Assembly: GCA_046047235.1 (NCBI GenBank)
Contig: JBJOII010000003.1
Coordinates: 8,970 to 72,969, forward strand
Reading direction: 5' to 3'
Source: Verrucomicrobiota bacterium
Lineage (GTDB): Bacteria > Verrucomicrobiota > Verrucomicrobiia > Limisphaerales > JAHDYP01
Length of the DNA: 64,000 nucleotides
Both the position numbers and the translations under genes were made by a program. The notes below the pieces were generated by a model that worked only from the letters and a program-made list of their open reading frames with translations, ran no database searches and was not told where the DNA came from. Each line of letters opens with the position of its first letter. Position 1 is the first letter of the stretch. Shown here one piece after another: positions 1 to 60,979 of the stretch.

Positions 1-72
1 AAACACCAGGGCCGACGCTTCAGGCTAACCGACGTCCACGGCAAACTCGTAAAGGAACTGTTCAACAGTTAG
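1..72 (+). CDS. 3' end of an upstream gene (last 23 codons: KHQGRRFRLTDVHGKLVKELFNS*)
   Basis: Frame 1 is open from base 1 to TAG at 70-72 and shows the C-ending codon bias seen in plus-strand genes here. It is too short for a functional call. Confidence 0.3.
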   Translation, partial: KHQGRRFRLTDVHGKLVKELFNS

Positions 73-75
73 CCC

Positions 76-103
76 TTGGCTGTTGGCTGTTGGCTGTTGG
101 CTG
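76..103 (+). repeat. TTGGCTG x4 heptamer tandem repeat
   Basis: Four perfect consecutive 7-mers read directly from the sequence, starting 4 nt after the TAG at 70-72. Confidence 0.9.
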
Positions 104-313
104 TGAACAGCGAACGCACCGCAGGCGCTGGGATTCAAAGGTCAAAGGTCAGGAGTCGAGAGTCAGCGCGCCCCTTGTTCCAAAACGTCCGCCGTAGAAC
201 CACAGGCGTAGGGAGCTCACCCTTTGGGGTGCCTCTACCCCCCCAAGCCCAGTGTCTCGGAGCTTCAGTGTTTCTGTGTTTCAGAACAACCTGCGCCGCG
301 GGAGCGGCGCAAT

Positions 314-336
314 TGGATTTGGCGCAGCCAAATCCA
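314..336. repeat. GCA-triloop hairpin module, variant copy (TGGATTTGGC-GCA-GCCAAATCCA)
   Basis: Perfect 10-bp stem. It differs from the copies at 9979 and 17421 by a C-to-G change matched by a G-to-C change on the other arm. It lies 6 nt from the stop at 343-345. Confidence 0.85.
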
Positions 337-2342: not shown

Positions 2343-4901
2343 TCAAATTGGCAGTAAGGAACCCGACTGCTCCCGATAAAAGGGAATCGCCCCGAGATCA
2401 GGCAGCGCACCTTCACGAATTGCCGGAGAACCCGACCGCAACCGGAAATCCCCACGCTCCGCATCCACGAAGCGGCTCAGGCGACAGCGCCCCGCCTGCA
2501 ACAAGAGATCCCCGCCTCCATCACGAAAGGGAATCTGGGCATTGGCCAACGTCACACCCTCAAGAACAAACTCGCCCCCGCCTGAAAGATTCACCACAAA
2601 ACCACGCCCAAGATGTTCGCTGTCCACCCGCGTCAAATGCGGGTCGCCTGATGACCGGATAACAACCTCCCGTGTCACCTCCAAGTCATGCTCACGATAA
2701 ACCCCGGGAGAAAGAGTGATGATTCCCCCCGCTGCAATCGCCTGCAAGGCGTCCCTGATGGTGGCCGCATCCCCGGGCACCCGCACTATGGGGCCTTCCG
2801 CAGCCAGATCCACCGGAGCACCCGGCGGCGCACGCAGCAAATCCCCCCGGACATCCCCAAGTGCTTCCCCCAACCCAACATCCTCAATCGGGGAGAACAT
2901 TACTGCACCGATATCCAGCGGGGTCCCATCCGGATCCAGCGTGGCCGGGTCACCACGATCAATGGCCGGCGATCCCGGTAGCAGGCGGAAGTCTCCCTTC
3001 TCCGGGTTCAAGAACATCGGATCCTCCGCAAGGTTGCCCGCCCCCTCATAACCGCCTTGCACAATGCAGTGTTCCACCAAGGTGCAGTCGAACAGCTGCT
3101 GGTCGTTATACGCCGGAAGATTGTTCCACAAAATGCAGTTGCGGAAACTGCCCTGATTCCCGCCCCCCACCATCCAAGGGTTGGAGACCTTGCCCCCGCC
3201 ATTCCCGTAGATGGTCGAACTGCTGACTTCACACCGCGTCAATACCGCGGCGTTCAGGCTGCCGCGATTGCCATAGATCAAACAGCGCCGGACCACCGCC
3301 GCACCAATCCCCGCCGTCTCGGCAGCAAAGTTGTTCCGGATAACGGAATCCTCCACCACCAGACTCCCCTGCGACCCGTCCTCGTTCCCAACCGGACTGC
3401 GACTGAACTCTTTGTCCCCCAGCACGCCTTCCACAATACATCGGCTCAGCCGACATTGCCCCTGAACCAGCCTCAGCGCACCTCCACCTTCCCCACGGGG
3501 AATCGTTGCATTAGCCAACGTCAGCCCTTCAATCACCACCACGCCCTCAGTCTCCAGATCCACAATCAAGCCCCGCCCCAAATGCTCGCTGTCCAGCCGC
3601 GTGTCCAATGCATCCCCCGCAGAACGAATCGTCAGCCCCTTGGTGATCACTACATCGTGCTCGCGATAATCCCCGGGCGCCAGGATCACCACATCCCCTT
3701 CGCCAGCCGCCTCAACCGCCAACCCAAGGCTCGCAAATTCCTCCGGCACCCGCAGCAGATTCACCCCGCTCCAGACCTGCGGCGGCCCCTGACGCCTGAG
3801 ATTCGGGAAAACCCATGCCTCCTCCTGAGATTGCTCCGCCACAACCCCGCTCATGGAGGAAGGGTCGTCACGCAGACCCGACGCTATCCACAAACCAGCA
3901 CCCACCAGCATCCCCGCCACCCCCAGCAAACCCCACACACTCGACAATCCAAACGCAGCCCCACCCGGCCTCCCCAACGCCTCCGGTCGCTTCCCCGCTG
4001 CCACACGCTCCAAATCCTCCAGCAGGTCAGACATCGACGCATACCGGTCACGCAACGCCCGCGCCATGGCACACTCCACCACCGCAGCCATCGCAGGGTT
4101 AACCCGGGGATTCACCTCGCGAACAGGAACCGGCGGCCCCGCCAAAATCCGGTCCAACACCTCCTGGGTCGATCCCCCCTCATAGGGAGGTCGACCCGTC
4201 AACAACTCATACAACAGAGCCCCAAATGAATAGATGTCAGCCCGCGTATCCTCCGCCTCCCCGGCCGCCACCGCCGGAGACATGTAAGGCGCAGTACCAT
4301 ACCGCTTCCCAATCTGTACCTCACCCGATCCATCCGCCGTGAAAGCCCGCGATAACCCGAAATCCGTCAGCAGCACCCTGCCCCCCTCACCCACCAACAC
4401 GTTGCCGGGCTTGATGTCCCGATGAATCAGCCCACTGGAATGCGCATACGCAATCGCCCCGGCCAGCTCAATGCCGATCCGCAGCACCTCCGCCTCTCCC
4501 ATCGACTGACCCCCATCCAGTCGGCGGGACAAACTGCCCTCCTCAAACCAAGGCATCACGAAATAAGGCCCGGGCGCCTCATCCTCCACCTCCAACACCG
4601 GAACAATGCCCGGATGCTGCAGCTGCTGCATCTGCCTCGCCTCCTGCAAAAACCGGCGTATCGAAATCGCATCCCCCGCCAGCTCCGGCCGCAACAGCTT
4701 GATCGCAACCGGCGCACCGTCCTTGCCTTCGGTCGCCTTGAACACTACCCCCATCCCCCCCACACCCAGAATCTCCCGGACTTCAAAATGGTCCAAAGAC
4801 CCCAACGCCCCCAGCACACTGGGAGGATTCAGGGCATTAAGGAAAAAAGTGCCGCCTGCCTCCGGAAATTCCGAAGCCAGTGGAAACGACCGATCCGACA
4901 T
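2343..4901 (-). CDS. Membrane Ser/Thr protein kinase with an extracellular parallel beta-helix-like repeat domain
   Basis: Kinase motifs GVGGMGVV, VAIKLL, HRDIKPGNVLV and TDFGL, then TM helix VWGLLGVAGMLVGAGLWIA and about 500 aa of Gly/Asn-rich beta-helix-like repeats. Alternative starts are at 4925 and 5033. Confidence 0.82.
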   Translation of the reverse strand: MSDRSFPLASEFPEAGGTFFLNALNPPSVLGALGSLDHFEVREILGVGGMGVVFKATEGKDGAPVAIKLLRPELAGDAISIRRFLQEARQMQQLQHPGIVPVLEVEDEAPGPYFVMPWFEEGSLSRRLDGGQSMGEAEVLRIGIELAGAIAYAHSSGLIHRDIKPGNVLVGEGGRVLLTDFGLSRAFTADGSGEVQIGKRYGTAPYMSPAVAAGEAEDTRADIYSFGALLYELLTGRPPYEGGSTQEVLDRILAGPPVPVREVNPRVNPAMAAVVECAMARALRDRYASMSDLLEDLERVAAGKRPEALGRPGGAAFGLSSVWGLLGVAGMLVGAGLWIASGLRDDPSSMSGVVAEQSQEEAWVFPNLRRQGPPQVWSGVNLLRVPEEFASLGLAVEAAGEGDVVILAPGDYREHDVVITKGLTIRSAGDALDTRLDSEHLGRGLIVDLETEGVVVIEGLTLANATIPRGEGGGALRLVQGQCRLSRCIVEGVLGDKEFSRSPVGNEDGSQGSLVVEDSVIRNNFAAETAGIGAAVVRRCLIYGNRGSLNAAVLTRCEVSSSTIYGNGGGKVSNPWMVGGGNQGSFRNCILWNNLPAYNDQQLFDCTLVEHCIVQGGYEGAGNLAEDPMFLNPEKGDFRLLPGSPAIDRGDPATLDPDGTPLDIGAVMFSPIEDVGLGEALGDVRGDLLRAPPGAPVDLAAEGPIVRVPGDAATIRDALQAIAAGGIITLSPGVYREHDLEVTREVVIRSSGDPHLTRVDSEHLGRGFVVNLSGGGEFVLEGVTLANAQIPFRDGGGDLLLQAGRCRLSRFVDAERGDFRLRSGSPAIREGALPDLGAIPFYREQSGSLLPI

Positions 4902-8506: not shown

Positions 8507-9874
8507 ATGAGCGACTCAGTTAAATACCTCCTCGACGAAACCCGCATCCCCAAAAGCTGGTACAACATCGCGGCCGACCTGCCCAAACCCCTGCCCCCGG
8601 TGCTCCACCCGGGTACACAACAACCCATCGGCCCCGAAGACCTCGCCCCGCTCTTCCCCATGGCCCTGATCCAACAGGAAGTCTCCACAGAACGCGAAAT
8701 CGAAATACCGGAACCCGTCCGCGATATCTACCGCCAATGGCGCCCATCCCCACTCTTCCGTGCCCGACGCCTCGAGAAGGCCCTCGATACCCCCGCCCGC
8801 ATCTACTACAAATACGAAGGCGTCAGCCCCGCTGGCAGCCACAAACCCAATACCGCCGTCGCCCAGGCCTTCTACAATAAGGAAGCAGGCGTCAAACGCA
8901 TCATCACCGAAACCGGCGCCGGCCAGTGGGGCTCCTCCCTCGCCTTCGCCGGCGCCATCTTCGGCCTCGATGTCCAGGTCTTCATGGTCAAGGTCTCCTT
9001 CAACCAGAAACCCTACCGCCGCGCCATCATGGAAACCTACGGCGCACGCTGCGTAGCCTCGCCATCCCAGGAAACCCAGGCCGGACGCGCCATCCTCGCC
9101 CAACGCGCCGACCACCCCGGCAGCCTCGGTATCGCCATCTCGGAAGCCGTGGAAATCGCCGCCCAGTCGGAAGATGCCAAATACGCCCTGGGCTCCGTCC
9201 TCAACCACGTCCTGCTCCACCAAACCATCGTCGGCGTCGAAGCCATCGAACAACTCCAGATGGCCGATGATTACCCCGATGTCGTCGTCGGTTGCACCGG
9301 CGGCGGATCCAACTTCGCCGGCATCGCCTTCCCCTTCATCGGTGCCGGACTCCGCGGAGGCCAAAAACCCCGCATCGTCGCAGTCGAACCCTCCGCCTGC
9401 CCCACCCTCACCCGCGGCCCCTACGCCTATGACTTCGGCGATACCGCCCACCTCACGCCGCTCGTCAAAATGCACACGCTCGGCTCCACCTTCACCCCGC
9501 CAGGATTCCACGCCGGCGGCCTCCGCTACCACGGCATGGCCCCGCTCGTCAGCCACGTGAAGGAACTCGGCCTCATCGAAGCCAAATCCTACCACCAAAC
9601 CCCCTGCTTCGCCGCCGGCGTCCAGTTCGCCAAAGCCGAAGGCATCGTCCCCGCCCCCGAAGCCAACCACGCCGTGCGCGGGGCCATCGACGAAGCCCTG
9701 AAATGCAAGGAAGAAGGCGTCAGCCGCGCCATCCTCTTCAACCTGTGCGGACACGGCCACTTCGACATGCAGGCCTACACGGATTACCTCTCAGGTAAAC
9801 TCGAAGACTCCGACTACAACGACCAGGAACTCGCCCTCGCCCTCGCCGGCCTCCCCAAAATGGAATCCGCCTAA
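8507..9874 (+). CDS. trpB: TrpB-like PLP-dependent enzyme (TrpB2 clade of tryptophan synthase beta)
   Basis: 455 aa with the N-terminal extension typical of TrpB2. Motifs SPAGSHKPN (PLP lysine) and [12 protein letters not shown]. No trpA lies adjacent. Confidence 0.9.
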
Positions 9875-9890
9875 AGCCCCAGCCGGCCGA

Positions 9891-9934
9891 CTGCGCGCCG
9901 CACTTGGGACGTTCTACGTCCCACCGGCGCGCAG
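9891..9934. repeat. Compound hairpin 17 nt after the trpB stop (10-bp outer stem plus 7-bp inner stem)
   Basis: CTGCGCGCCG...CGGCGCGCAG encloses TGGGACG-ttcta-CGTCCCA. The inner part recurs at 33422-33442. No U-tract follows, so it is not a classical intrinsic terminator. Confidence 0.8.
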
Positions 9935-9978
9935 TGGCCAGTGTTTCGGATCAAGCAGTGCCGCGCCAGCGGCACAAC

Positions 9979-10001
9979 TGGATTTCGCGCAGCGAAATCC
10001 A
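9979..10001. repeat. GCA-triloop hairpin module (TGGATTTCGC-GCA-GCGAAATCCA)
   Basis: Perfect 10-bp stem, identical to the copy at 17421-17443. Confidence 0.9.
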
Positions 10002-10140
10002 ACAGAAGCCCGCTCCAGTGGGCGACAGACCGCGGCCGCAAGGACGCGGTACCGACAGGGACCTGCCCTGAGCCTGTCGAAGGGCCGAATCGCCGGGAGG
10101 CGATCACTGAATCCACCCTCTGCGCGCAGCGCCTGTCCCC

Positions 10141-10238
10141 CAGCTCCCAGCTCCTAGCTCCCAGCTCCCAGCTCCCGTTCCGCGCACGCGGCACTACCCT
10201 CTGCGCTTTGCGCTTCGCGCGCAGCGCGAATTCCTCAG
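10141..10238 (+). repeat. Phased heptamer tract of 14 units (CAGCTCC x5 ... CCCTCTG CGCTTTG CGCTTCG CGCGCAG CGCGAAT TCCTCAG)
   Basis: 98 nt parse into 14 heptamers with no indel. The last unit contains the ppk2 stop codon (10235-10237). Confidence 0.85.
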
Positions 10239-11719: not shown

Positions 11720-11850
11720 GGGACGGAACTTACGCCCGCCAACCAAAGCCGCCAAGCCGCTTTGTCACCCCTCGCGCAGCGCCCGTCCCCCCCGACCCTG
11801 CCGGAGTTTCGGAGTTTCAGTGTTTCGGAACACCGGTAAACCGGCAGCCC

Positions 11851-11899
11851 TCTCCCCTCTCCTCTCTCCTCTCTCCCTGCGGCCCGTCCTCGGGCCGCA
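11851..11899 (+). repeat. Polypyrimidine tract plus hairpin module (TGCGGCCCG-tcct-CGGGCCGCA)
   Basis: TCTCCCCTCTCCTCTCTCCTCTCTCCC followed by a perfect 9-bp stem. The same architecture occurs at 24453, 30679 and 62755. Confidence 0.85.
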
Positions 11900-11903
11900 A
11901 GAG

Positions 11904-11959
11904 CCCTCAGCCCTCAGCCCTCAGCCCTCAGCGCTATGCGCTTGCCGCACAGCGCTTGG
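11904..11959 (+). repeat. Phased heptamer tract of 8 units (CCCTCAG x4, CGCTATG, CGCTTGC, CGCACAG, CGCTTGG)
   Basis: Read directly from the sequence. It lies in the divergent ppk2/protease promoter region. Confidence 0.85.
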
Positions 11960-17123: not shown

Positions 17124-17420
17124 CCCCCGCCCCAAAGGCGCATCGTAGCGGGTAGCCGGGACCCAATCCATGCAGCATACCCTTGCGGGTGGGGACGACC
17201 TGTCCCGCGACCGCGGAATCCTCCAAATCGTTGCACCCACCTCGGCATCCAAATCGAAATCGCTATCGGGATCGAAATCGGAATAGCCAGGCGAGCGTAG
17301 AGAGAAAAGAGTTACCCCCGCCCCAAAGGCGCGTCGTCCACCAAATCACTGCACCCACCTCGCACCGGCAGGGACGACCCGCCCCCACGCTTCGGAATTT
17401 CTGTGTTTCAGCGCAGCCAC

Positions 17421-17443
17421 TGGATTTCGCGCAGCGAAATCCA
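17421..17443. repeat. GCA-triloop hairpin module (TGGATTTCGC-GCA-GCGAAATCCA)
   Basis: Identical to 9979-10001. It sits 5 nt from the dus stop (17449-17451) and shares the 3' flank CAT(A/C)GACCT with the copy at 314. Confidence 0.9.
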
Positions 17444-17448
17444 TCGAC

Positions 17449-18555
17449 CTACCACAGCTCCACCGGCCCCTTCGGCACCGCAACCCGCATACCCGCCTCC
17501 ACCTCCTCACCATCTTCCTTGAACGCAACCGCCAAAGGCGGCGGAGCATACCGCGACTGCAGCTGGCCCGCCCCATCCTCAAACTGCACCCGCCAGTCCA
17601 AATAACCCGCAACAATCTCGTCAAACTCAGCCCGCGTGGCCAGACGGACCACCCGCTTGTTGAAATAGCTCGAGGGACCAAACCGCCGCGCATACCACGG
17701 GGCCACTTTCCGGAACATGCGGCATCCAAGATCCTCCCCAAATACCTCCACCATCCGGTCAAGATGCAGGGTCATCACCCGTAACCGTTCACCAAACTCC
17801 GGCTCCTCCAACTCCTCCCCCGTACGCAGGTAGTGCTCGGTCTGACGAAAAATCCATGGGTTATAAAACGCCCCCCGCCCCACACTCACCCCGGCACAGC
17901 CCGTCTCCTCCAGCATCCGCTTCGCCGCCTGCGGCGTCGTCACATCCCCGTTCCCCACCACCGGAATCCCCGGCGCAGCCTCCACCACAGCTCGAATTCC
18001 CTCCAAACTCACCCTCCCGCTAAAACCCTGCTGACGCGTCCTGCCATGGACAAAGACCGCCGCCACACCCACGTCCGCCACCGCCCGAGCCAAGTCGGGT
18101 GCCGTCAGATTCTCCTCGTCCCAGCCCAAGCGCATCTTGACGGTCACCGGAATCCTCACCGCCTCAACCATCCCCCGCACCAGCCCAACCGTCCGGTCCA
18201 AATCGTTCATCATCGCCGATCCGCCACCCACCTTGCAGACCTTGCGAACCGGACAGCCCATGTTGATGTCCACCGAAGCCACCCCCATGCCCTCAAGAAT
18301 CACTGCAGCATCCCGCATCTCCTCCGGCACCGCACCAAACAACTGCACCGCCAACGGTCTGTCGCCCTCGCAGGACTCCACCAATTTCAAAGCCTTCGGC
18401 CTCCGCTCCAGCAGGGAACGCGCATTCACCAGATCCGTCGTCGCCAAACCCAAGCCACCCAGCTCACGCAGGGTCAACCGAAACGGCAGGTTGGTATACC
18501 CCGCCAACGGCGACAAACACAGGTTCGTGGCCAACTCTAGACTCCCAAATCGCAT
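17449..18555 (-). CDS. dus: tRNA-dihydrouridine synthase
   Basis: LSPLAGYTNLPFR, DINMGCPVRKV (catalytic Cys) and VHGRTRQQ. ATG at 18555 (MRFGSLEL) is preferred to the TTG track start at 18579. Confidence 0.88.
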   Translation of the reverse strand: MRFGSLELATNLCLSPLAGYTNLPFRLTLRELGGLGLATTDLVNARSLLERRPKALKLVESCEGDRPLAVQLFGAVPEEMRDAAVILEGMGVASVDINMGCPVRKVCKVGGGSAMMNDLDRTVGLVRGMVEAVRIPVTVKMRLGWDEENLTAPDLARAVADVGVAAVFVHGRTRQQGFSGRVSLEGIRAVVEAAPGIPVVGNGDVTTPQAAKRMLEETGCAGVSVGRGAFYNPWIFRQTEHYLRTGEELEEPEFGERLRVMTLHLDRMVEVFGEDLGCRMFRKVAPWYARRFGPSSYFNKRVVRLATRAEFDEIVAGYLDWRVQFEDGAGQLQSRYAPPPLAVAFKEDGEEVEAGMRVAVPKGPVELW

Positions 18556-24407: not shown

Positions 24408-24452
24408 AAGCCTGAGGTCAAAGTCCGGCGGTCAGCCACGCAAATCCCCCAG

Positions 24453-24495
24453 CTCCTCTCTCCCCCCTCCCTGCGGTCCACCACGCGGACCGCAG
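24453..24495 (+). repeat. Polypyrimidine tract plus hairpin module (CTGCGGTCC-accacgc-GGACCGCAG)
   Basis: CTCCTCTCTCCCCCCTCCC followed by a perfect 9-bp stem. Confidence 0.85.
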
Positions 24496-24524
24496 CACCC
24501 CTCTGCGCTTGCCGCTTTGCCTCC

Positions 24525-24673
24525 CCATTCATGTATGGCTTGTGTTCATGCGGATACCCCTACGAACCGCGTTCGCCCCACGGTATAACCGCATGAATAG
24601 TCCACACATGAATAAACCCATCCCGGCACCGACTCCGGCCATTCATGTATGGCTGCGTTCATGCGGACACCCC
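24525..24673 (+). repeat. Pair of direct repeats of about 35 bp (24525-24560 and 24639-24673) flanking a 54-nt imperfect hairpin (24545-24598)
   Basis: CCATTCATGTATGGCT(TGTG/GCG)TTCATGCGGA(T/C)ACCCC occurs twice. TTCATGCGG/CCGCATGAA, ATACC/GGTAT and CGAAC/GTTCG form nested stems. Confidence 0.75.
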
Positions 24674-24745
24674 ACAGGACCCCTGCCGGTGTTTCCGTGT
24701 TTCACTGTTTCAGAGCATGAACCAGAGCACGCCTCAGCGCACAGC

Positions 24746-24882
24746 GCTGCTGCCCCATCGAAATCGCTATCGGGATCGCTATCGGGATCGAATGCTGAAG
24801 TTCCCAGTCGCAGGACGCAGGATACCGGATAGCGAAGATCGGACATCGCCCCGAGCGACCGAAGACCCGAGGCGCGCTTCCC
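24746..24882 (+). repeat. 137-bp dispersed repeat, copy A
   Basis: Aligns without gaps to 51569-51705 with 5 mismatches by hand count. It contains (ATCGCTATCGGG)x2. A short related piece lies at about 17240-17290. Confidence 0.9.
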
Positions 24883-24972
24883 GCTTGCCGCTTTGCCCTC
24901 AGCCCTCCGCCCTCCGCCCTCCGCCCTCAGCCCTCCGCCCTCAGCGCTATGCGCCTACCGCTTGCCGCCCCT
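24875..24972 (+). repeat. Phased heptamer tract of 14 units (CGCTTCC CGCTTGC CGCTTTG, then CCCTCAG/CCCTCCG x7, then CGCTATG CGCCTAC CGCTTGC CGCCCCT)
   Basis: 98 nt in perfect 7-bp register. The tract ends on the stop codon (24971-24973) of the REC-HD-GYP gene. Confidence 0.85.
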
Positions 24973-26257
24973 AACAATACACCACCAACGACTGCGCAAT
25001 CGGATTCAACCGGTTGTGGTTGCGCAGCTTGTCGATATAGGCCTCCGACAACTGTTGTCCATCGGGTATCAGCAAAATGCCATTCGCGGTGTAGATACCC
25101 TTGGCCAGAATCATTCCCGGCCGCAACTCCGACAACATCACCTCGCGTTGCTTCCGCGGCACCATAGCCTGCGGCAGGCTACGTATGAACGCCCGCACCG
25201 CCTCAGGATCAAACTTCGTCCCGCTCTGGTGCTGCAGCATTTCCAAGGTATCGGAATGCTTCTCGTTACTCTCGGAATACGCCACCGCCACCGCCAGCAA
25301 CCGCCCCAGCCACGGAATCGATTCGCCCCGCAACTGGTCCGGATAGCCTGTTCCGTCAAAACGCTCATGGTGCGCCCGGATGGTCTCACCCACCCCGGCC
25401 AACCCATGCACAAAACCCGCCAGCTCCTGCCCCAGAATCGGATGATGCTGGATCACCTTCAGTTCCGCGTCATTCAATTCGCTCGGAGTGTGCTGCCAAC
25501 GCCGGATCAGTTGCCTCGGCGCACCCACCAAACCAATGTCGTGCAGCCACGCCGCCACTTCCAAACTCTGCTGCTCGTCCGCCGAAAGCTCCAGGGAATG
25601 ACCCACCGCCCGGCATAACTCATAAACCCGCCGCGCCTGACTCCCCAACGTCGGGTAAAAGGTCTCCATCGTCCGCAAACACAACTCAATCGAATGCTGC
25701 AGGTTCTTCTGCAGCGCCGTGTTCAGCCCCTCCAACTGACGGTTCTGGTCCGCCACACGACTCACCTGCTCCTCCAAGGCCTTGTTCAGCTTGGAAAGCT
25801 TCTCGTTCATCGCAATCGCCGTCGCCTGCAATACCTTGTTCTTGCAAATCAGGTCATATCGCTGCACCGCGTTGCGCACCGTCGCCAGCAACTCCTCCCT
25901 CAACCACGGCTTGATCACAAAACGGTAGATCTCACCCTTGTTGATCGCGTCAATCACGGTGTTCAAACTCAACACCGCCGTCACCAAAATGCGCGTCGCG
26001 TCAGGCTGCGTCTCCTTCACCTGGCTCAGGAATTCCAAGCCCGTCAGGTTTGGCATCTGATGGTCCGTAATGATGACCGAAAACGCCTGCTCCTTGATTA
26101 ATTCCAAGGCCTGCAACGGATCACTGCACGCCACCACGTCATAACCCTCACGGGTCAACGCCTCCCGCAACGCCACCAACACAATCTCCTCGTCGTCTAC
26201 CACCAGCAAACGATGAGGCGAGAGTAACTCGGGAGATGATGCTTCTACGAATTTCAT
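24971..26257 (-). CDS. Response regulator with an HD-GYP output domain (candidate c-di-GMP phosphodiesterase)
   Basis: Receiver motifs LLVVDDE, IITDHQMPNLTG and KPW, a coiled-coil linker, and the HD..HHERFDGTGYP motif. Confidence 0.88.
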   Translation of the reverse strand: MKFVEASSPELLSPHRLLVVDDEEIVLVALREALTREGYDVVACSDPLQALELIKEQAFSVIITDHQMPNLTGLEFLSQVKETQPDATRILVTAVLSLNTVIDAINKGEIYRFVIKPWLREELLATVRNAVQRYDLICKNKVLQATAIAMNEKLSKLNKALEEQVSRVADQNRQLEGLNTALQKNLQHSIELCLRTMETFYPTLGSQARRVYELCRAVGHSLELSADEQQSLEVAAWLHDIGLVGAPRQLIRRWQHTPSELNDAELKVIQHHPILGQELAGFVHGLAGVGETIRAHHERFDGTGYPDQLRGESIPWLGRLLAVAVAYSESNEKHSDTLEMLQHQSGTKFDPEAVRAFIRSLPQAMVPRKQREVMLSELRPGMILAKGIYTANGILLIPDGQQLSEAYIDKLRNHNRLNPIAQSLVVYC

Positions 26258-30458: not shown

Positions 30459-30678
30459 CTCCCAGCTACCGGGCAAAGAGACGGTAAACCAGCAATCGGG
30501 ACAACGGCACCCTGAAGGGCGGACACCCTGCGGGCGCGGTTCCCCCGCAGAACGTGGTCAGTCACATGGAAACCGGCCAATACGGAGGGCGATTTTGGAG
30601 GCAGGGTGTAGGGAACCCCGCCCCCGGGAAAAAAACGTGGAATGGTCCCCTCCCCGCTACTGCGCGGAGCCCCAGCCT

Positions 30679-30742
30679 ACCCTCTCCTCTCTTCCCTCTC
30701 CCCTCTCATTGCGTCGCGCAACCGCGCGACGCAATCCCTCAG
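30679..30742 (+). repeat. Polypyrimidine tract plus 12-bp hairpin (ATTGCGTCGCGC-aacc-GCGCGACGCAAT) plus one CCCTCAG unit
   Basis: Read directly from the sequence. The terminal CCCTCAG (30736-30742) contains the aguA stop codon (30739-30741). Confidence 0.85.
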
Positions 30743-33199: not shown

Positions 33200-33218
33200 G
33201 CAAACCCAATCCCCTCTC

Positions 33219-33255
33219 AGGGCGCGTGTTCCCCACGGAATACGCGCCCTTTTTC
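33219..33255 (+). terminator. Intrinsic terminator of the DHS-like gene
   Basis: AGGGCGCGT GTTCC-ccac-GGAAT ACGCGCCCT forms a 14-bp stem (one G-U pair) with a tetraloop, followed by TTTTC. It starts 20 nt after the TAA at 33197-33199. Confidence 0.8.
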
Positions 33256-33269
33256 ATCGTACCCCCCCA

Positions 33270-33388
33270 CGCCTACCACTTCGCGCTTCGCCCTCAGCCC
33301 TCAGCCCTCAGCCCTCAGCCCTCAGCCCTCAGCCCTCAGCCCTCTGCGCTTCCCGCTTCCCGCTTCCCGCTCTGCGCTCAGCGCCCCG
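33270..33388 (+). repeat. Phased heptamer tract of 17 units (..CGCTTCG, CCCTCAG x7, CCCTCTG, CGCTTCC x3, CGCTCTG, CGCTCAG, CGCCCCG)
   Basis: 119 nt in perfect 7-bp register. The CCCTCAG x7 block is at 33291-33339. Confidence 0.88.
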
Positions 33389-33421
33389 TGTTTCAGAGTT
33401 TCGGAACAGCTACGCGCCGCG

Positions 33422-33442
33422 CTTGGGACGTTCTACGTCCCA
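33422..33442. repeat. Hairpin module CTTGGGACG-ttcta-CGTCCCA
   Basis: The 21 nt are identical to 9903-9923, and the preceding GCGCGCCGC(A/G) is also shared. Confidence 0.88.
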
Positions 33443-33455
33443 GCAGCGCCACAGA

Positions 33456-33474
33456 AATTCGCCGCAGGCGAATT
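33456..33474. repeat. GCA-triloop hairpin (AATTCGCC-GCA-GGCGAATT) abutting the ClC stop codon
   Basis: 8-bp perfect stem. The adjoining 13 nt GCGAATTCCTCAG (33468-33480) are identical to 10226-10238. Confidence 0.85.
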
Positions 33475-33476
33475 CC

Positions 33477-35261
33477 TCAGTCTTCCTGCGCAGCTGCCAC
33501 CTGCGTCTGTGCCCTCAGCAGGTCGTGCAGGGTGACAATCCCAATCGCCTTCCCCCCCGGACGATCCACCAGAACCACCAGCCCCGTAGAGGAATCAATC
33601 AACAACCGCTGCAGACGCCGAATGGAATCCTTGGGCAGACAGGTCGGCACCTGCTCCAGCTGGGGTTCCCGCGATTCCCGCGTGGCCTTCTCCACCTCCT
33701 CACGCGCCAGCACCCCTTTCAGCTCGCGATCGATCACCACCGGAAACCTCTCGTAAGGATGATCGCTCAGGGTCGCCTTGATCGCCGCCGGATCGAGATC
33801 CTTCACCAGCGCGGGCTTGAAATTGGCAATCGCAGATACCGGCAGCTGCTGCCATTCCGTCAGGTCACGCGGCGGCCGCACATGCTCGACCTCGTGTCCG
33901 TCCTGCTCAAGTAAGGCCTCATAAAAGTTGTGCTTGTTGAAACGACGACTGATCCACGAGCTGACCAGCGCACCCAGCATCAGGGCCGGCACGAGCGTAA
34001 ACTCATGGGTCATCTCGAACACTATCAGGATGCCGGTCACCGGAGCCCAAACCACCGCCCCCAAGCACGCACTCATCCCCACCACCACCAACGTCAGCAC
34101 ATCCGCCGCAGGCAACTGAAACTCCACACCAAATACCTTCCCCGCCTCAGTCAATCCCCCCGCTATCACCAAACCCGTCATCCCCCCAAAAAACAACGTC
34201 GGCGAAAAAATACCCCCGCAACCGCCCGTCCCGTAACAAGCCACGGTCGCAATGAATTTGGCCAGCAACAACAGCAAGGCCATCTTCCACATCAACCCGC
34301 CCCCCAACGCCGCAGTCAGATCATCATAACCCAGACCAAAGACACCCAACCGCCCCTTCCCATCCTCAGCAATCATCGCGGTCGTCACATACACCGCAAT
34401 GCCCAGCATCCAGGTAATCAACGCTCCCACCGCCGGAAAGGCCCACGAGTTGCCAAAACGCCAGCCACGCGACCGCTTCCGCAACCGCAGGCAGCTGCGC
34501 TGGAATTGCACACCCACAAGACTCGCAATCAACGCCACCAAGGGCGTCAGGGCATACCCCTGATACGACGGGCCAGACAGGTTCTGCGGCAGCTGGAACG
34601 CCGGATCCGGGCCAATGATTCCGTGCACCATGAACGCGCCCAGCACCGAGGCAAAAAGAATGCTGCCCAAAAAGCGGCTGTTCAGATCCCCAATGATCTC
34701 CTCCATTACAAAAGTGATCGAGGCCAGCGGCGTGTTGAATGCCGCCGCCAAACCGGAAGCCGCACCCGAAGCCGCGCTCTCCCGCCGCTTCTGCTTGGGT
34801 TCACCAAACAAGGCCGCAAGGTTCGACCCCAGCGCTCCCGCCAACTGCACGCTCGGACCTTCACGCCCCAAACTGGCCCCTCCGCCAATGCTCAGCACGC
34901 CCGCCAGAAACTTCACCCAAACCACCCTGAACGGCACATGCCCAAACTCCTTCCAGAACGCCAGCTTCAGCTGCGGAATACCACTGCCCGCCGCCTCAGG
35001 ACAGAACCGGCGCAGCAACCAACCCGAGACCAATGAGGTCGCCACAATAATCGCCAGACTGGTCGTGGCAAACTCGCGAAAGGAAACGGTCTCGGAGTAG
35101 GCAAAGAAATGGATGCCCCACTCAAACAGCAGGTTCATCGCGATCTGGAACACCACCGTCACGAGTCCAGCCGCCAAACCGTAGATGCATACCAGCAGGA
35201 TCGCCCGCGCCCCCTTCGGAAGCCGGTGGATCTGTTGACGCAACAGGTTCAGCAAAACCAT
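33477..35261 (-). CDS. ClC-family chloride channel/antiporter with C-terminal CBS pair
   Basis: Selectivity motifs GSGIPQ, GREGP and GGIFSPTLFFG, followed by two CBS-like repeats. Confidence 0.9.
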   Translation of the reverse strand: MVLLNLLRQQIHRLPKGARAILLVCIYGLAAGLVTVVFQIAMNLLFEWGIHFFAYSETVSFREFATTSLAIIVATSLVSGWLLRRFCPEAAGSGIPQLKLAFWKEFGHVPFRVVWVKFLAGVLSIGGGASLGREGPSVQLAGALGSNLAALFGEPKQKRRESAASGAASGLAAAFNTPLASITFVMEEIIGDLNSRFLGSILFASVLGAFMVHGIIGPDPAFQLPQNLSGPSYQGYALTPLVALIASLVGVQFQRSCLRLRKRSRGWRFGNSWAFPAVGALITWMLGIAVYVTTAMIAEDGKGRLGVFGLGYDDLTAALGGGLMWKMALLLLLAKFIATVACYGTGGCGGIFSPTLFFGGMTGLVIAGGLTEAGKVFGVEFQLPAADVLTLVVVGMSACLGAVVWAPVTGILIVFEMTHEFTLVPALMLGALVSSWISRRFNKHNFYEALLEQDGHEVEHVRPPRDLTEWQQLPVSAIANFKPALVKDLDPAAIKATLSDHPYERFPVVIDRELKGVLAREEVEKATRESREPQLEQVPTCLPKDSIRRLQRLLIDSSTGLVVLVDRPGGKAIGIVTLHDLLRAQTQVAAAQED

Positions 35262-51485: not shown

Positions 51486-51568
51486 TCCCCGCTACCCGCT
51501 TCGCCCAGTAGCCAGAAGAGCGGAGAGAGCATAGCGGACACGCCGTCGCTCCGCCCTTTGCGCTTGCC

Positions 51569-51705
51569 GCTGCTGCCCCATCGAAATCGCGATCGGGATC
51601 GCTATCGGGATCGAATGCTGAAGTTCCCAGTCGCAGGAAGCAGGATACCGGATATCGAAGATCGGACATCGCCCCGAGCGACCGAAGACCCGGGGCGCGC
51701 TTACC
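51569..51705 (+). repeat. 137-bp dispersed repeat, copy B
   Basis: Gap-free alignment to 24746-24882 with 5 mismatches by hand count, in the same orientation. Confidence 0.9.
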
Positions 51706-51843
51706 CCTTACCGCTTACCCCTTACCGCTTACCCCTTACCGCTTACCCCTTACCGCTTGCCCTCCGCCCTCAGCCCTCAGCGCTCTGCGCTCTGCGCTTT
51801 CCGCTTTCCGCTTGCCGCTTACCGCTCTGCGCTCTGCGCTCAG
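51701..51843 (+). repeat. Phased heptamer tract of 20 units drifting through related 7-mers
   Basis: (TTACCCC TTACCGC)x4, TTGCCCT, CCGCCCT, CAGCCCT, CAGCGCT, CTGCGCT x2, TTCCGCT x2, TGCCGCT, TACCGCT, CTGCGCT x2. The tract ends on the phnY stop codon (51840-51842). Confidence 0.9.
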
Positions 51844-53285
51844 GGCCACGGCAACGAATACGTCTTCACGTTCGTGAAGAATTTCATGGCCTCACTCACG
51901 CCCTCTTTCACTCCGTTGCCAGAATCCTTGATGCCTCCGAACGGCGACGTCTCGATCCGGTAACCCGGCTGTTCCCAGATGTTCACGGTCCCCACACGCA
52001 ACCCTTCAATGAACGCCTGCATCCGGCGGAAATCATTCGTGCAGACTCCCGACGACAAACCGAACGGCGTGCTATTGGAAATGCGCATGACTTCCTCGTC
52101 GTTGTCCGGCACACGCACGATGGGAACGATCGGCCCGAAAGTCTCCTCCATGACCAGTTCACTTTGATGCGGCACGAAGTCGACCACGATCGGCGGCAGC
52201 AGGGCGCCCTTGCGACCCGGATCATAGAGGACCTTGGCCCCCTGCTCTGCGGCCAGATAGACCCGCTTCTCGAACAACTCCGCCGCCCTGGCATGAATGA
52301 CACAACCCAGCTCAGTCGCCGGATCCATCGGATCCCCAAACCGGATCGCCTTCGCCTTGGTCAGCACGAGCGGAACGAATCGATCCGCCACGCTTTCCTG
52401 TACCAGAATGCGCTTCACCGCAGTGCATCGCTGACCCGAATTCCCCGTTGCACCCGCCACCGCAATGGTCGCCGCCTTCTCCAGGTCCGCATCGTCCAGA
52501 TCGTTCAGGATGATCAGGGGATCGTTGCCTCCCAGCTCCAAGGCCTGCCGCTTGTACACCGCCTTCGACGCAATCATCTTCCCCACCGGCACACCACCCG
52601 TGAAGGTGATGATGTCGATGTTGGGATTGGTGATCATTTCATCGCCAATGTCCTTCGGCCAACCGGTAACAACTTGGAACATCTCCGGAGGCAGACCGGC
52701 TTCATACAGGAGATCCGCCAGTGAAAGGGCCGTCAACGGAGTCAGCTCGGTCGGCTTGCACACCATGCAGTTGTTGGTGGCAATCGATGGCGCCACCTTG
52801 TGACTCACCATGTTCAACGGATGGTTGAACGGGGTGATGGCTGAGATGGCCCGCACCGGTTCGCGCTTGGTGTAAATCTTCCGCTGCTTCCCGTTGTGCG
52901 TCAGGTCGCAGGAAAAAATCTGGCCGTCGTCCTGCAGCGTCTGCGCCGCAGCAAAGGTATACACATCCTGCGCCCGCTTGGTCTCGTAAATGGCATGCTG
53001 CCAGCAAATGCCCAGTTCCAAGACCAGCCACTTGGCCAGAAACTCGCGACGCTCCCCGATCAGCTCACCCGTGCGCTTCAGGATCCGGCTGCGCTCGTAA
53101 CGCGTCAGCTTCGACTCATACGCCGCCGCTATCTCAAACGCACGACGCGCATGCTCCGCCGTCCCCGCCGGAACGGTCCCCACAACCTCGTCGGTATACG
53201 GATACCGCACCTCAATCCGTTCCCCGGTAAAGACCTTCTCCCCACCAATCCGCATCCCTTCGTTCCGGATCTCAATACGACTCAT
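51840..53285 (-). CDS. phnY: Aldehyde dehydrogenase, probably phosphonoacetaldehyde dehydrogenase
   Basis: ALDH catalytic motifs ELGGNDP and GQRCTAV. A GAGGAG Shine-Dalgarno lies upstream. The gene sits directly downstream of a PhnA-type hydrolase. Confidence 0.8.
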
Positions 53286-53300
53286 AGCTGCTCCTCGATA

Positions 53301-54545
53301 TCAAAGCGCCGCCGCGCGCGTGGCATAAAAGAACCCGTCAAAGTTCCGCAACTCCGGAGCATTCGGCACCTCCAACACGCGGTTCACTATAAACGGCACC
53401 TCCTGCTCGGTCAGCCCGCCATGGCTGCGCAACGGCTCCTTCAACGCCGCCAAGTCATGCCGGTGCTCCGACGTCCCCAACGTCATGTTCTCACCCGAGA
53501 TGATCACCACATCCCCAATCCGGTCCGCCGGCAACTCATAGCGCCTCACGGCCTCCGCCCGGTCCACCACGTCAATAATCTCCGGGACCGCCCTTAGCCG
53601 CTCCATGATCGCCCCACAATCCGACCCCGCCGGCAAATACGCCGTCGCAAACGAACCCAGCGCACCGTGATGCACCACATACGGATCGGTGATCGGCAGG
53701 ATCACCCGCGCCTTCGCCTCCCCCAGCCACTCGTCAAACAGGTCCTGCAAATAAATCACCCGCGGCCCACCCCGCTCATCATGCTTCGGCTTCATCCCGT
53801 GATCCGCCGTCACCACAATCGCCGCCCCCAAGGCATCCAACTCAGCCAAATACCGGTCGAACATCGCATAAAAATCCTTCGCCCCCTGCTCCACCGGCGA
53901 AAACTTGTGCTGAATGTAATCGGTCGTCGATAAATACATCACGTCCGGCTTCCACTCGCGCGCCAGCTTTACCCCGGCCGCAAATACAAACTCAGACAAC
54001 CCCGCAGAATACACCTCAGGCACCGCCATCCCCAACCACTCGTCCGCCCTGTCAATGCCGTTGGCCGCCTTCGTCGCCTGATCCGACCGCTCCGACGAAA
54101 AGCAAATCGCCCGATCCTCCCCAAACTCCAAACCCGCCCCCAACAACGCCCGAAGCTTGTCCTTCGCTGTCACGACGGCCACACGCGCCCCCGCCCGATA
54201 AAACTGGCTGAACACGGTCGGCGCCCGCAGGAACCGCACGTCGTTCATCATCACTTCCTCCCCGGTCTCCGGCTCAAACAGATAGTTGCCACAAATCCCG
54301 TGCACCACCGGCGGCCGCCCCGTCGCAATCGACAGATTGTTCGGATTGGTAAATGAAGGAATCACCGAGTGCGCCCGCCGGTCCGTGCCCGTTTCCCGAA
54401 TGCGTTTCAGGGTCGGCATCAAACCCTCCGCAATCGCCACATCGAGATACTCCGGTTCACAGCCATCCAGACAAATCACAATGGCGCAGGTCTTGGGTCC
54501 AGGATAGGTGCGACCGTTTGCCGTCACCTCAGATGGAATGGTCAT
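53301..54545 (-). CDS. phnA: Phosphonoacetate hydrolase (alkaline-phosphatase superfamily)
   Basis: VICLDGCEPEYL, IPSFTNPNNLSIATG, VHGICGN and TADHGM, as I recall them from PhnA. ATG at 54545 (MTIPSE) is preferred to GTG at 54578. Confidence 0.8.
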   Translation of the reverse strand: MTIPSEVTANGRTYPGPKTCAIVICLDGCEPEYLDVAIAEGLMPTLKRIRETGTDRRAHSVIPSFTNPNNLSIATGRPPVVHGICGNYLFEPETGEEVMMNDVRFLRAPTVFSQFYRAGARVAVVTAKDKLRALLGAGLEFGEDRAICFSSERSDQATKAANGIDRADEWLGMAVPEVYSAGLSEFVFAAGVKLAREWKPDVMYLSTTDYIQHKFSPVEQGAKDFYAMFDRYLAELDALGAAIVVTADHGMKPKHDERGGPRVIYLQDLFDEWLGEAKARVILPITDPYVVHHGALGSFATAYLPAGSDCGAIMERLRAVPEIIDVVDRAEAVRRYELPADRIGDVVIISGENMTLGTSEHRHDLAALKEPLRSHGGLTEQEVPFIVNRVLEVPNAPELRNFDGFFYATRAAAL

Positions 54546-54934
54546 GTCGTTAAAAAAGTCGGTTAAACCAGAAGCCACCGACCGTAGTGATCCGCGCTGT
54601 CCCGCTCAAGGACAAAGCCCCCCCGACCCAGGCGAGACCGCGCCCGGGCATGGTTCGAAGAATACCCACCCGTCGTCTCCATCCAGGTTATCCAGAAGTT
54701 CACTGCCAGCGCCCTGCGTAAACCCACACCGGGAATCCATGAGCACAAGAATACGCCATAAACCACCTCCCGTGCTCTGCCCGAAGACAGAGGCCAACCC
54801 CCTGTTCATCACTTCCAGTTCCCGCCAAACCCCGATCTGGCGAATCCGTCAGATCAGCCTGATCTACACCATGCGCCAATCGAGCTGCAACACCCGAAGA
54901 ACAGTGCCAGCGTGTGGGCCTTCACAGCCCCACC

Positions 54935-59861: not shown

Positions 59862-60941
59862 ATGTCCCCCTCCAAGTGGTGTCGAAACAAAACGGCGCTC
59901 GCGTCGCTCGGACTTCTGCTAAGCCTCCCGCTGCCTGCCGCCCCCACCCCCACCCCCGCCTGGCAGGGCGTCCACCTCATGGCCCCCGGCGCCTCCGGCA
60001 TGCCCCTCCTGGAAAAGGCCGTCTCCGGCCCGCTCTCAAACCTCGGAGTCAATGTCGTCATCCTAGAAATCGGATACGGCTACGCCTTCACCTCCCACCC
60101 CGAACTCGCCCGGCCCGGCGGCATCACCCGGGAACAGGCCCGGTCGCTGGCCAAAGCCTGCAACGACAAAGGCATCCGGCTCATCCCCCTCTTCAACTGC
60201 CTCGGACACCAGTCCTGGGCCAAAACCACCCACCCACTCCTCACCCAATACCCCGAGTTCGACGAAACACCCGATATCCCCACGGACAATCCCGACATCT
60301 ACTGCCGCAGCTGGTGCCCCCTGCATCCCAAGGTCAACAACGTCGTCTTCGCACTGCTGGACGAACTGATCGAAGCGTTCAATGCCGACGCACTCCATGT
60401 CGGCATGGACGAGGTCTTCCTCATCGGTCATGACCAATGCGAACGCTGCCGGGGCAAAGATCCGGCCGATCTGTTCGCACGCGCCGTCCATGACCTGCAC
60501 CAACATCTCGTAGGAACCAAAGGCGTGGAGATGCTGCTCTGGGGAGACCGCCTCATCGATGACAACGTCATGCGCTATGGCGAATGGGAGGCTAGCCGAA
60601 ACGGCACCGCAGCCGCAGTCGACAAAATCCCCAAGGATATCGTCATCTGTGACTGGCACTACGAGAAACGGGAAAGCTACCCCTCCATTCCGTTCTTCCT
60701 GGACAAAGGATTCCGCTGCTGGCCATCCAGTTGGCGCAACAAGGAAGCCGCCCTCGCCCTGCAGGCACACGCACGCGAACAAAACCATCCCCGCATGCTC
60801 GGTCACCTCTGCACCACCTGGAGCGGATCAGAAAGCCTCGCCAAAGTGCTCCTGCAGGAAGCTGACGATAACAACCGCTACCACCAGGCCCGCCAGCTCG
60901 CCGACGTGCTAAACGCCTGCTTCGGCACTGCGGAACGCTGA
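59862..60941 (+). CDS. Secreted TIM-barrel glycoside hydrolase, GH20-like
   Basis: ATG at 59862 gives a signal peptide. IPLFNCLGHQSW and HVGMDEVF resemble the GH20 PGH and HxGxDE motifs. The family assignment is tentative. Confidence 0.55.
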   Translation: MSPSKWCRNKTALASLGLLLSLPLPAAPTPTPAWQGVHLMAPGASGMPLLEKAVSGPLSNLGVNVVILEIGYGYAFTSHPELARPGGITREQARSLAKACNDKGIRLIPLFNCLGHQSWAKTTHPLLTQYPEFDETPDIPTDNPDIYCRSWCPLHPKVNNVVFALLDELIEAFNADALHVGMDEVFLIGHDQCERCRGKDPADLFARAVHDLHQHLVGTKGVEMLLWGDRLIDDNVMRYGEWEASRNGTAAAVDKIPKDIVICDWHYEKRESYPSIPFFLDKGFRCWPSSWRNKEAALALQAHAREQNHPRMLGHLCTTWSGSESLAKVLLQEADDNNRYHQARQLADVLNACFGTAER

Positions 60942-60944
60942 CCC

Positions 60945-60979
60945 ATATCGTCGTCATATCGTCGTACTCATATCGTCGT
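60945..60979 (+). repeat. ATATCGTCGT x3 direct repeats (60945, 60956, 60970)
   Basis: Three perfect 10-mers spaced 11 and 14 nt apart, starting 4 nt after the GH20-like stop. The last one runs into the left inverted repeat of the next element. Confidence 0.85.

Follow-up and report, generated by a model that had tools for sequence, protein, structure and literature searches.

The 3′ intergenic spacers of a 64-kb stretch of DNA from a Limisphaerales-like Verrucomicrobiota metagenome-assembled genome (MAG), hereafter the window, appear to have been colonised by two lineage-specific classes of repeat, namely arrays of heptamers and hairpins that resemble repetitive extragenic palindromes (REPs) and bacterial interspersed mosaic elements (BIMEs). 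We put a probability of roughly 60% on the joint reading that both are lineage-specific elements lying on the sense strand at ancestral stop codons, that the arrays turn over by slippage and that their 5′ edge is pinned at the stop. The initial annotation of the window had described repeat tracts running flush into the stops of five minus-strand genes, and Pfam matches bear out the identities that it gave to all five: PPK2 (ppk2), REC and HD-GYP, an agmatine-deiminase-type PAD_porph (aguA), ClC and CBS (a ClC channel), and an aldehyde dehydrogenase (phnY). The five cases lie in convergent spacers (9875-10234, 24408-24970, 30459-30738, 33200-33476 and 51486-51839), which puts every tract 3′ of a plus-strand gene as well. 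A self-trained codon-usage caller placed 27 of the 47 genes of the window on the minus strand. The ppk2 product is 100% identical to the Verrucomicrobiota MAG protein RI897_195, and the syntenic relative L114 is annotated as Limisphaerales MAG GCA_049451415.1.

The initial annotation had pointed to an identical 13-nt edge shared by two unrelated genes. The 13-mer GCGAATTCCTCAG was found exactly at 10226-10238 and 33468-33480, and at no further site of the window even with one mismatch. The TCA embedded in it does serve, read as TGA, as the stop codon for ppk2 (10235-10237) and for the ClC gene (33477-33479). The 13-mer is not the edge of a heptamer tract, however; it is a stop followed by the 5′ arm of a hairpin, as listed here with the related hairpins, which we call hairpin B.

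10226-10238, minus strand: first copy of the 13-mer, reading C, TGA (the ppk2 stop) and GGAATTCGC, the 5′ arm of a hairpin
33468-33480, minus strand: second copy of the 13-mer, reading C, TGA (the ClC stop) and GGAATTCGC, again the 5′ arm of a hairpin
10210-10234, minus strand: hairpin directly 3′ of the ppk2 stop, GGAATTCGCGC-TGC-GCGCGAAgc
33454-33476, minus strand: hairpin-B copy directly 3′ of the ClC stop, GGAATTCGCC-TGC-GGCGAATTTC
17422-17442, minus strand: hairpin-B copy, GGATTTCGC-TGC-GCGAAATCC, 6 nt past the TAG of a Dus gene (17449-17451)
315-335, minus strand: hairpin-B copy whose stem carries a compensatory change, GGATTTGGC-TGC-GCCAAATCC, 7 nt past the TGA of the open reading frame (ORF) 343-1068
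9980-10000, minus strand: hairpin-B copy in the middle of the spacer, some 235 nt past the ppk2 stop and the only copy away from a stop

Four of the five hairpin-B copies of the window lie 0, 0, 6 and 7 nt past a stop (ClC, ppk2, Dus and ORF 343-1068, the last with weak coding evidence). They have stems of 9-10 bp and a TGC loop, and the surrounding stretches of 46-51 nt fold at -16.6 to -21.4 kcal/mol, with -17.6 kcal/mol as RNA for the 51-nt stretch at ClC. The ClC copy aligned with 17422-17442, 9980-10000, 315-335 and one copy from the relative L116 in an offset alignment of five sequences, which takes in a common downstream tail (GTGGCGCTG-like). The stems vary yet stay complementary (GGATTTCGC/GCGAAATCC vs GGATTTGGC/GCCAAATCC), and one pair of the ClC copy is a G-U pair only on the minus-strand RNA. 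At ppk2, the 3′ arm runs into GAAGCGC/AAAGCGC heptamer units that keep a 7-nt register with the TGA.

G and T are very abundant on the minus strand, where 5 of the 14 TGA stops are followed by GG, and in such a skewed composition two stop contexts might match over 13 nt by chance. The number of matches expected by chance is only 0.06, however, and none of 100 dinucleotide-preserving shuffles reached two. The likeness also continues past the 13-mer into the TGC-loop hairpin, and the ClC copy aligns with four more members of the family; a coincidence is hardly credible. Read from these alignments, the identity of the 13-mer is homology within a dispersed, stop-proximal hairpin family, and neither chance nor a tract edge nor ancestral context. 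One hairpin family would then have been set directly after TGA at two genes (C-TGA-GGAATTCGC).

The heptamer arrays were collected with Tandem Repeats Finder and our own period-7 scan, and the 3′ flanks of the genes were laid out on the minus strand in rows of seven from the stop. Nine head-to-tail 7-nt tandem arrays in seven spacers of the window were obtained. Their units would fall into one putative class of G-rich N-R-A-G-S-G-S heptamers (TGAGGGC, GGAGGGC, GAAGCGG, TAAGCGG, AGAGCGC), together with GGGAGCT and AGAGGGR. The arrays that bear on the five genes, one array pair in a divergent spacer and two counterexamples on the plus strand are as follows.

10137-10220, minus strand: arrays in the convergent ppk2/PALP spacer, (GGGAGCT)5.4 and a short xxxGCGC array
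24873-24973, minus strand: REC-HD-GYP array, TGAGGGC, GGAGGGC and CAAGCGG units up to the TAG stop (24971-24973)
30680-30742, minus strand: 3′ end of aguA, with the stop unit TGAGGGA (30736-30742), a 28-nt palindrome (30708-30735) and (AGAGGGR)4 (30680-30707)
33283-33378, minus strand: ClC-side array, (CTGAGGG)8, (GGAAGCG)3 and CAGAGCG units
51695-51842, minus strand: phnY array, about 20 units from the stop codon itself (TGAGCGC, AGAGCGC, AGAGCGG, TAAGCGG and so on)
11847-11936, minus strand: arrays upstream of ppk2 in a divergent spacer, (GAGAGGG)n and (TGAGGGC)4
70-106, plus strand: counterexample, an ORF entering from the left with its TAG at 70-72 and (TTGGCTG)4 from 76
60939-60980, plus strand: counterexample, a Glyco_hydro_20 gene with its TGA at 60939-60941, followed 2 nt later by (CATATCGTCGT)x3, an 11-mer

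The claim that the tracts are flush at all five stops held exactly for phnY, approximately for HD-GYP and ppk2 (where the array is weak), and not for aguA and ClC. At phnY, the stop lies inside a CGCTCAG unit as annotated; unit one of the array (TGAGCGC) opens with its three bases, and the array is periodic for 143 nt. At HD-GYP, periodicity begins within 4-7 nt of the stop, so that the tract 24875-24972 does nearly end on it, although this stop is TAG and not TGA. The weak, short xxxGCGC array at ppk2 is 4 nt away and in register with the TGA, and the main (GGGAGCT)5 starts 59 nt away. The aguA stop does lie inside CCCTCAG, as a single heptamer, and the array is 35 nt from the first stop base. 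The stop unit and (AGAGGGR)4 keep one 7-nt register, and the palindrome between them, a perfect 12-bp stem (ATTGCGTCGCGC-AACC-GCGCGACGCAAT), measures 28 nt, which is exactly four heptamer units; it looks like an insertion into an array that formerly began at the stop. The ClC-side array starts 98 nt past the ClC stop, behind two hairpins and a GAAAC module, and 86 nt from the stop of a plus-strand deoxyhypusine-synthase-like gene. The arrays at 11847-11936 lie about 60 nt upstream of a plus-strand gene start, on the antisense strand of that gene.

The tracts had been proposed to serve minus-strand genes only, but the plus-strand stops at 70-72 and 60939-60941 also carry adjoining arrays. The (TTGGCTG)4 array (76-104) begins 3 nt past the TAG and is G/T-rich on the sense (plus) strand. 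Since the plus-strand stops at 70-72 and 60941 carry sense-side arrays, array orientation follows the sense strand of the upstream gene and not the minus strand as such. An orientation set by the replication strand was considered and rejected, because (TTGGCTG)4, which follows a plus-strand ORF, has its G-rich side on the plus strand and because loci in other genomes have arrays without skew.

The possibility that the repeats remodel gene 3′ ends was evaluated with orthologs, and these together with the aguA Pfam match indicate that none of the five C-termini has moved from its ancestral position. Of the 39 ppk2 orthologs inspected, 38 terminate where the window protein does or at most 3 residues away (...LE+AL / ...ALEKRL). 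The syntenic ppk2 ortholog of the relative L113, which is 76% identical, ends CTC-TGA-G at the same residue as in the window; the ppk2-PALP spacer has 154 nt without repeats in L113 vs 360 nt in the window, and the L113 locus shows no GC skew. The phnY product ends in ...SLPWP-stop, as do Rhodobacteraceae and other, distant orthologs, and the HD-GYP product in ...VVYC-stop, as do essentially all orthologs. The aguA Pfam match spans positions 2-321 of the 321-position profile and reaches residue 392 of 393, and ClC homologs align to 5-8 residues from the end. To judge from these alignments, there is no 3′-end remodelling within this window and all five stops are ancestral in position. The five genes can be annotated as intact, and repeat-derived C-termini or recoding need not be invoked. 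The identity of the stops drifts: phnY has TGA in the window and TAG in L116 and L117, and HD-GYP has TAG in the window and TGA in the relatives L118 and L119, both of which are without an array.

Counted in units, the phnY array itself comes to about 20 in the window, 8.5 in L114, 4 in L116 and 0 in L117. In L114 and L115 it reads TGAGCGC, GAAGCGG, AAAGCGC and so on (L115 shows the first few units up to the contig end), and in L116 TAGACGG, GAAGCGC, TGAGCGC, TGGGGGC, TGAGGGC. In the window, L114, L115 and L116 alike, the array begins at the stop. The boundary of the array is thus fixed at the stop while the number and type of units change quickly between relatives, a turnover of the kind that slippage-prone simple sequence repeats (SSRs) would be expected to produce. 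In these sequence comparisons, the arrays and hairpins behave as lineage-specific insertions at ancestral stops.

Placement was then compared in other genomes, where genes were taken as ORFs of at least 100 codons whose G+C content by codon position follows GC3>GC1>GC2 and were spot-checked with Pfam. (GCCCTCA)4 was found in at least 112 DNA stretches from many phyla (L001-L112). For 31 of 47 (TGAGGGC)n arrays, read on the G-rich strand, a co-oriented upstream stop fell between -10 and +24 nt relative to the array start, vs a gene end within 10 nt on the convergent side in 2 of 33 (Fisher p = 3.5e-8). The stop lay inside the array in 24 of the 47, and ended at +3, +10 and +17 nt in 12, 8 and 4 cases. 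Ten ORFs ending in arrays were checked and proved to be intact genes with complete C-terminal Pfam domains. As a control we used (GGAAGCG)4, a unit that is stop-free in all frames, at about 120 metagenome loci (L120-L239). Co-oriented stops were found within -8 to +5 nt of the array start in 25 of 44 cases vs 4 of 32 on the convergent side (p = 1e-4), and about 14 of these 25 stops were in register as a T-substituted first unit (TAAGCGG, TAGCGGG, TGAAGCG). The left neighbour of the G-rich strand was co-oriented by 47:15 for TGAGGGC and 44:8 for GGAAGCG. TAA, TAG and TGA all serve as array-adjoining stops in these genomes.

The tie between repeats and stop codons is thus beyond chance at these loci (31/47 vs 2/33), and it is bound neither to TGA nor to a stop triplet in the unit. 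Stop anchoring is real, sense-strand specific and independent of stop triplets, because the stop-free (GGAAGCG)n anchors equally strongly, and it seems to be general in bacteria for G-rich heptamer arrays. The stop-free control narrows the mechanisms to a 3′ untranslated region (UTR) function, a termination-coupled process or microhomology trimming. Hosts of (GCCCTCA)n and (GGAAGCG)n include Streptomyces, Thiohalocapsa, Oscillochloris, Gemmatimonadales, Acidobacteriota, Armatimonadetes and soil metagenomes. In some genes of the other genomes, the last 2-5 codons are encoded by the array (C-termini ...EG-stop and ...RAEG-stop).

The same data bear on the idea that the tracts were selected as frame-independent stops that catch read-through or frameshifted ribosomes of minus-strand genes. 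The arithmetic behind it is correct, in that (CTGAGGG)n gives TGA in all three frames within 21 nt, and 24 of the 47 co-oriented genes elsewhere use an array TGA as their stop, in all three phases. Most units of the window are stop-free, however (GAAGCGG, AGAGCGC, GGGAGCT and AGAGGGR have no stop triplet), and the first 63 nt of the phnY array cover one frame only. Nor are the five genes better covered: the median distance to a stop in all three frames is 81 nt for them vs 84.5 nt for the other, array-free minus-strand genes (plus-strand genes, 295 nt). The stop-free (GGAAGCG)n is equally anchored, and the Xanthomonas GGGAATC arrays, also stop-free, show the same placement (PMC4692102). Selection for such a stop function is very unlikely, and the TGA in every frame of (CTGAGGG)n is probably a by-product of the unit sequence and not the reason for the tracts.

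Insertion or expansion targeted at TGA-G contexts, as the initial annotation had suggested, found no more support, since TGA or TAG followed by G is the default of the minus strand (G at +4 in 16 of 25 genes), the HD-GYP array follows TAG and other genomes use all three stops. Stop choice in the window tracks the strand, with TGA or TAG in 24 of 25 minus-strand genes and mostly TAA in plus-strand genes, and stop triplets occur at 2.78 per 100 nt on the minus strand vs 1.52 on the plus strand.

The heptamer arrays and hairpin B share the spacers with further modules, and the second putative class would consist of short REP/BIME-like hairpin modules in such mosaics.

24745-24875, minus strand: core module of about 130 nt, copy 1, with heptamer arrays on both sides
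51575-51695, minus strand: core module of about 130 nt, copy 2, with heptamer arrays on both sides
33410-33449, minus strand: hairpin-A module, a GGGACGTAGAACGTCCC core inside a longer stem, RNA fold -26 kcal/mol
9891-9930, minus strand: second hairpin-A copy, the 40-nt copies being 90% identical
262-291, 11806-11835, 17389-17418, 24691-24720 and 33382-33411, minus strand: (CYGAAACWC)x3 module in five spacers

The two copies of the 130-nt core are near-identical and are enclosed in a 203-nt repeat pair of 85% identity. The core contains a 12-nt repeat (GATCCCGATAGC) 2.3 times, and fragments of it were seen at 17224-17290 of the window and at 9440-9475 of L114. It had no Rfam match, and Rfam (gathering threshold) and tRNA scans of the whole window gave no match either. 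A metagenome scan with the core sequence ACTGGGAACTTCAGCATTCGA returned 0 matches. No terminal inverted repeat (TIR) or target-site duplication (TSD) was evident around the core copies, though no formal search was made. Both copies of hairpin A are in convergent spacers and fold at about -25 to -26 kcal/mol as RNA. The (CYGAAACWC)x3 module consists of three direct repeats of 8-9 nt, usually followed by GGCAGGGTC...GGGGG, and occurs also in the relatives (L114 at about 9735-9780, L116 at about 3230-3260); from its sequence, a protein-binding array is one possibility and a portion of some larger mosaic element another. The order of hairpin A, hairpin B, (CYGAAACWC)x3, the 130-nt core and the heptamer arrays varies among the mosaics, and modules of the 24.5-kb spacer of the window recur in a different spacer of L114.

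This dispersal would be expected if the arrays and hairpins were, or rode on, mobile DNA (REP-like with an associated RAYT, like miniature inverted-repeat transposable elements, or other) that integrates at stops or terminator contexts. Modules are repeated across spacers (hairpin B five times, hairpin A twice, the 130-nt core twice, the GAAAC module five times) and, as just described, between spacers of different relatives; identical units occur in many phyla, junctions are often exactly past the T of the stop, and hairpin B is 0-7 nt from a stop in four of five copies. On the other hand, neither TIRs nor TSDs were seen around the modules, though no formal search for them was made, and no transposase was identified beside them, though the window was not searched for one. 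Between relatives, arrays at the same locus differ unit by unit, as is typical of slippage, and scanning metagenomes for the 130-nt core gave nothing. We regard such targeted insertion as unlikely.

A role of the repeats in the 3′ UTR was considered in view of their position. The ppk2, HD-GYP, ClC and phnY spacers were scanned for terminators, as was the aguA spacer, in a wider scan, except for its far 19 nt. The only canonical hairpin and T-run terminator in them was found at 33219-33250, where it serves the plus-strand deoxyhypusine-synthase-like gene; for the minus-strand genes, aguA included, these scans gave no canonical hairpin and U-tract terminator. With G-quadruplexes (G4) allowed, ViennaRNA predicted quadruplexes in the ClC, HD-GYP, phnY and 11.9-kb arrays and placed none in the GGGAGCT or AGAGGGR arrays.

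Predicted G4 arrays and stop-proximal hairpins might accordingly be kept for their action on the upstream mRNA, possibly, by analogy, by shielding it from 3′ exonucleases, by terminating transcription where there is no U-tract, or by stalling ribosomes at the stop as E. coli REPs do. Their sense-strand-specific placement, the RNA G4 predicted for several arrays and the lack of canonical terminators at the minus-strand genes in the scanned spacers all agree with this, as do hairpin stems that keep pairing through changes (with a pair that is G-U only in the sense RNA), an array kept at the phnY stop across species, and the literature (PMC12306157, PMC4692102). However, Rehm et al. saw no regulatory role for their heptamers (PMC4692102), the GAAGCGG and AGAGCGC units lack runs of three G (G3 runs), and the relatives L113, L117, L118 and L119 do without an array at the same genes. 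Such a function is doubtful as the explanation of the repeats, if somewhat better placed than targeted insertion, and it is compatible with lineage-specific arrays and hairpins at ancestral stops, not exclusive of them; the elements may have RNA-level roles.

We return to the joint reading of slippage-prone arrays and hairpins pinned at ancestral stops, for which several steps can be proposed. Units would turn over by slipped-strand mispairing, and the arrays would be transcribed as the 3′ UTR of the upstream gene. The 5′ edge would be pinned at the stop by purifying selection on the sequence upstream of it. The spacer between stop and array could be lost by deletion between unit-like microhomologies, because T-AA, T-AG and T-GA can fuse with AA, AG and GA inside the units. 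Some points weigh against this reading. Tandem arrays grow from within and leave their flanks intact, so pinning would call for something further, either a deletion or the birth or insertion of the array at the stop. The same unit sequences occur at many loci in many phyla, a recurrence for which purely local slippage does not account. The gene calls in other genomes are heuristic, and some of the loci are mutually orthologous (e.g. L056 and L068). Within the 64 kb, only three of the five arrays are near flush.

Since identical units recur across loci and phyla, targeted insertion and a termination-coupled process both keep some of the probability. In the latter case, stop codons across bacteria would be birth or anchoring sites of G-rich heptamer arrays through a conserved process coupled to transcription and translation, a candidate being slippage or template switching driven by R-loops or G4 and starting at the point where ribosomes no longer cover the nascent RNA. 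Unrelated units (TGAGGGC, GGAAGCG and those of the window) do start at, and often inside, a co-oriented stop, frequently right past its T. We consider such a process improbable, more so than insertion of mobile DNA.

The extreme strand skew of the host lineage is a more unusual feature than the repeats. The G+C content of the window is 61%, and its GC skew is -0.17 to -0.44 in all 2-kb bins. At 4-fold degenerate sites of the coding strand, C reaches 0.69 and G 0.14 in plus-strand genes, and G reaches 0.62 and C 0.16 in minus-strand genes. The resulting GC skew at these sites (GC4 skew) is about 0.6-0.67 and has the same absolute direction whichever strand the gene is on. The skew is graded in the relatives (L114 0.22, L116 0.14, L118 0.11; L113, L117 and L119 about 0). 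At the ends of the orthologous genes, only L114, L115 and L116, all of them skewed, showed heptamer arrays, and L118, with a skew of 0.11, has no array at its HD-GYP ortholog. Within the improbable reading of stop codons as birth sites of arrays, this parallel rise of skew and arrays in the relatives would hint at one cause behind both. A literature search for extreme GC skew in Verrucomicrobia gave nothing relevant. With its extreme skew, the lineage should be useful as a natural system for strand-asymmetric mutation.

Two further observations concern genes of the window. A Ser/Thr kinase ORF at 773-2194 on the minus strand overlaps, in another frame, ORF 343-1068 of the same strand, which has a weak FG-GAP_3 match; the pair may represent two overlapping genes, or else a single gene that carries a frameshift or was misassembled. 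phnY and an upstream Phosphodiest-family gene occupy 51840-54605. The phosphonoacetaldehyde dehydrogenase (phnY) is 85-89% identical to Rhodobacteraceae proteins (Marivivens, Loktanella, Ruegeria), and ppk2 is only 53-76% identical to its nearest non-self relatives. Because of this difference in identity, the sequences suggest a recent horizontal transfer of the phosphonate-catabolism genes between phyla.

By their sequence and arrangement, the repeats of the window fit known kinds, namely G-rich heptameric SSRs and REP/BIME-like hairpins. In cyanobacteria, short tandemly repeated repetitive (STRR) sequences comprise several heptamer units in tandem arrays dispersed through the intergenic DNA of one genome. 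The window likewise has several heptamer units in its spacers, but its units and phylum are different, and to our knowledge no stop-codon anchoring has been described for STRR sequences. Three tandemly repetitive heptanucleotides of Calothrix PCC7601 are mentioned in PMC4692102. Our literature searches on the heptamer unit sequences returned primer noise only.

The closest match to the arrays is the class of Rehm et al. (2015), G-rich heptamer arrays such as GGGAATC in Xanthomonas and GGGGAYT in Nostoc, whose placement includes overlap with stops, which vary between close relatives and form G4, and for which no regulatory role was found (PMC4692102). These arrays form part of the excess of long heptanucleotide SSRs that Mrazek et al. 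(2007) noted, as cited there (PMC4692102). The window arrays are likewise tandem, 7-nt, G-rich and intergenic with typically at least 4 units, and vary in length and sequence between close relatives at conserved loci; quadruplexes are predicted for some of them and not for others. They are stop-proximal at phnY (0 nt), HD-GYP (0-4 nt), ppk2 (4 nt, weak) and the plus-strand ORF (3 nt), with aguA (35 nt) and ClC (98 nt) as exceptions, and the arrays at 11847-11936 fit the second placement class of Rehm et al. (PMC4692102). Unlike that class, the units are of NRAGSGS types, several without G3 runs and some with stop triplets, several unit types are mixed per array, and the arrays lie within hairpin mosaics of a Verrucomicrobiota host with extreme strand skew. 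The window is thus a clear example, from a little-studied phylum, of G-rich heptamer arrays on the sense strand at the stop.

The TAACTGA direct repeats of Beggiatoaceae, cyanobacteria and Bacteroidetes (MacGregor 2015, PMC4679880) share with the window arrays the three-frame stops in forward orientation, and overlap ORF ends for this reason (PMC4679880). They are A/T-rich, have 2-6 copies, lie mainly just upstream of starts and were proposed as binding sites of a translational regulator (PMC4679880), whereas the window arrays are G-rich and mainly downstream of stops. The hairpins of the window resemble REPs and BIMEs in being short imperfect palindromes, extragenic, dispersed and in mosaics with other short motifs, and in lying between convergent genes or in putative 3′ UTRs, with a subset within 15 nt of a stop. 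They differ in having no sequence similarity to proteobacterial REPs, in two copies that start at +1, and in the heptamer arrays alongside. Known REPs and BIMEs number hundreds per genome; the count here is five hairpin-B copies in 64 kb and one in L116. In E. coli, ribosomes stall at REPs that lie no more than 15 nt from a stop (summarised in PMC12306157), and the hairpins at +1 are candidates for a control of this type.

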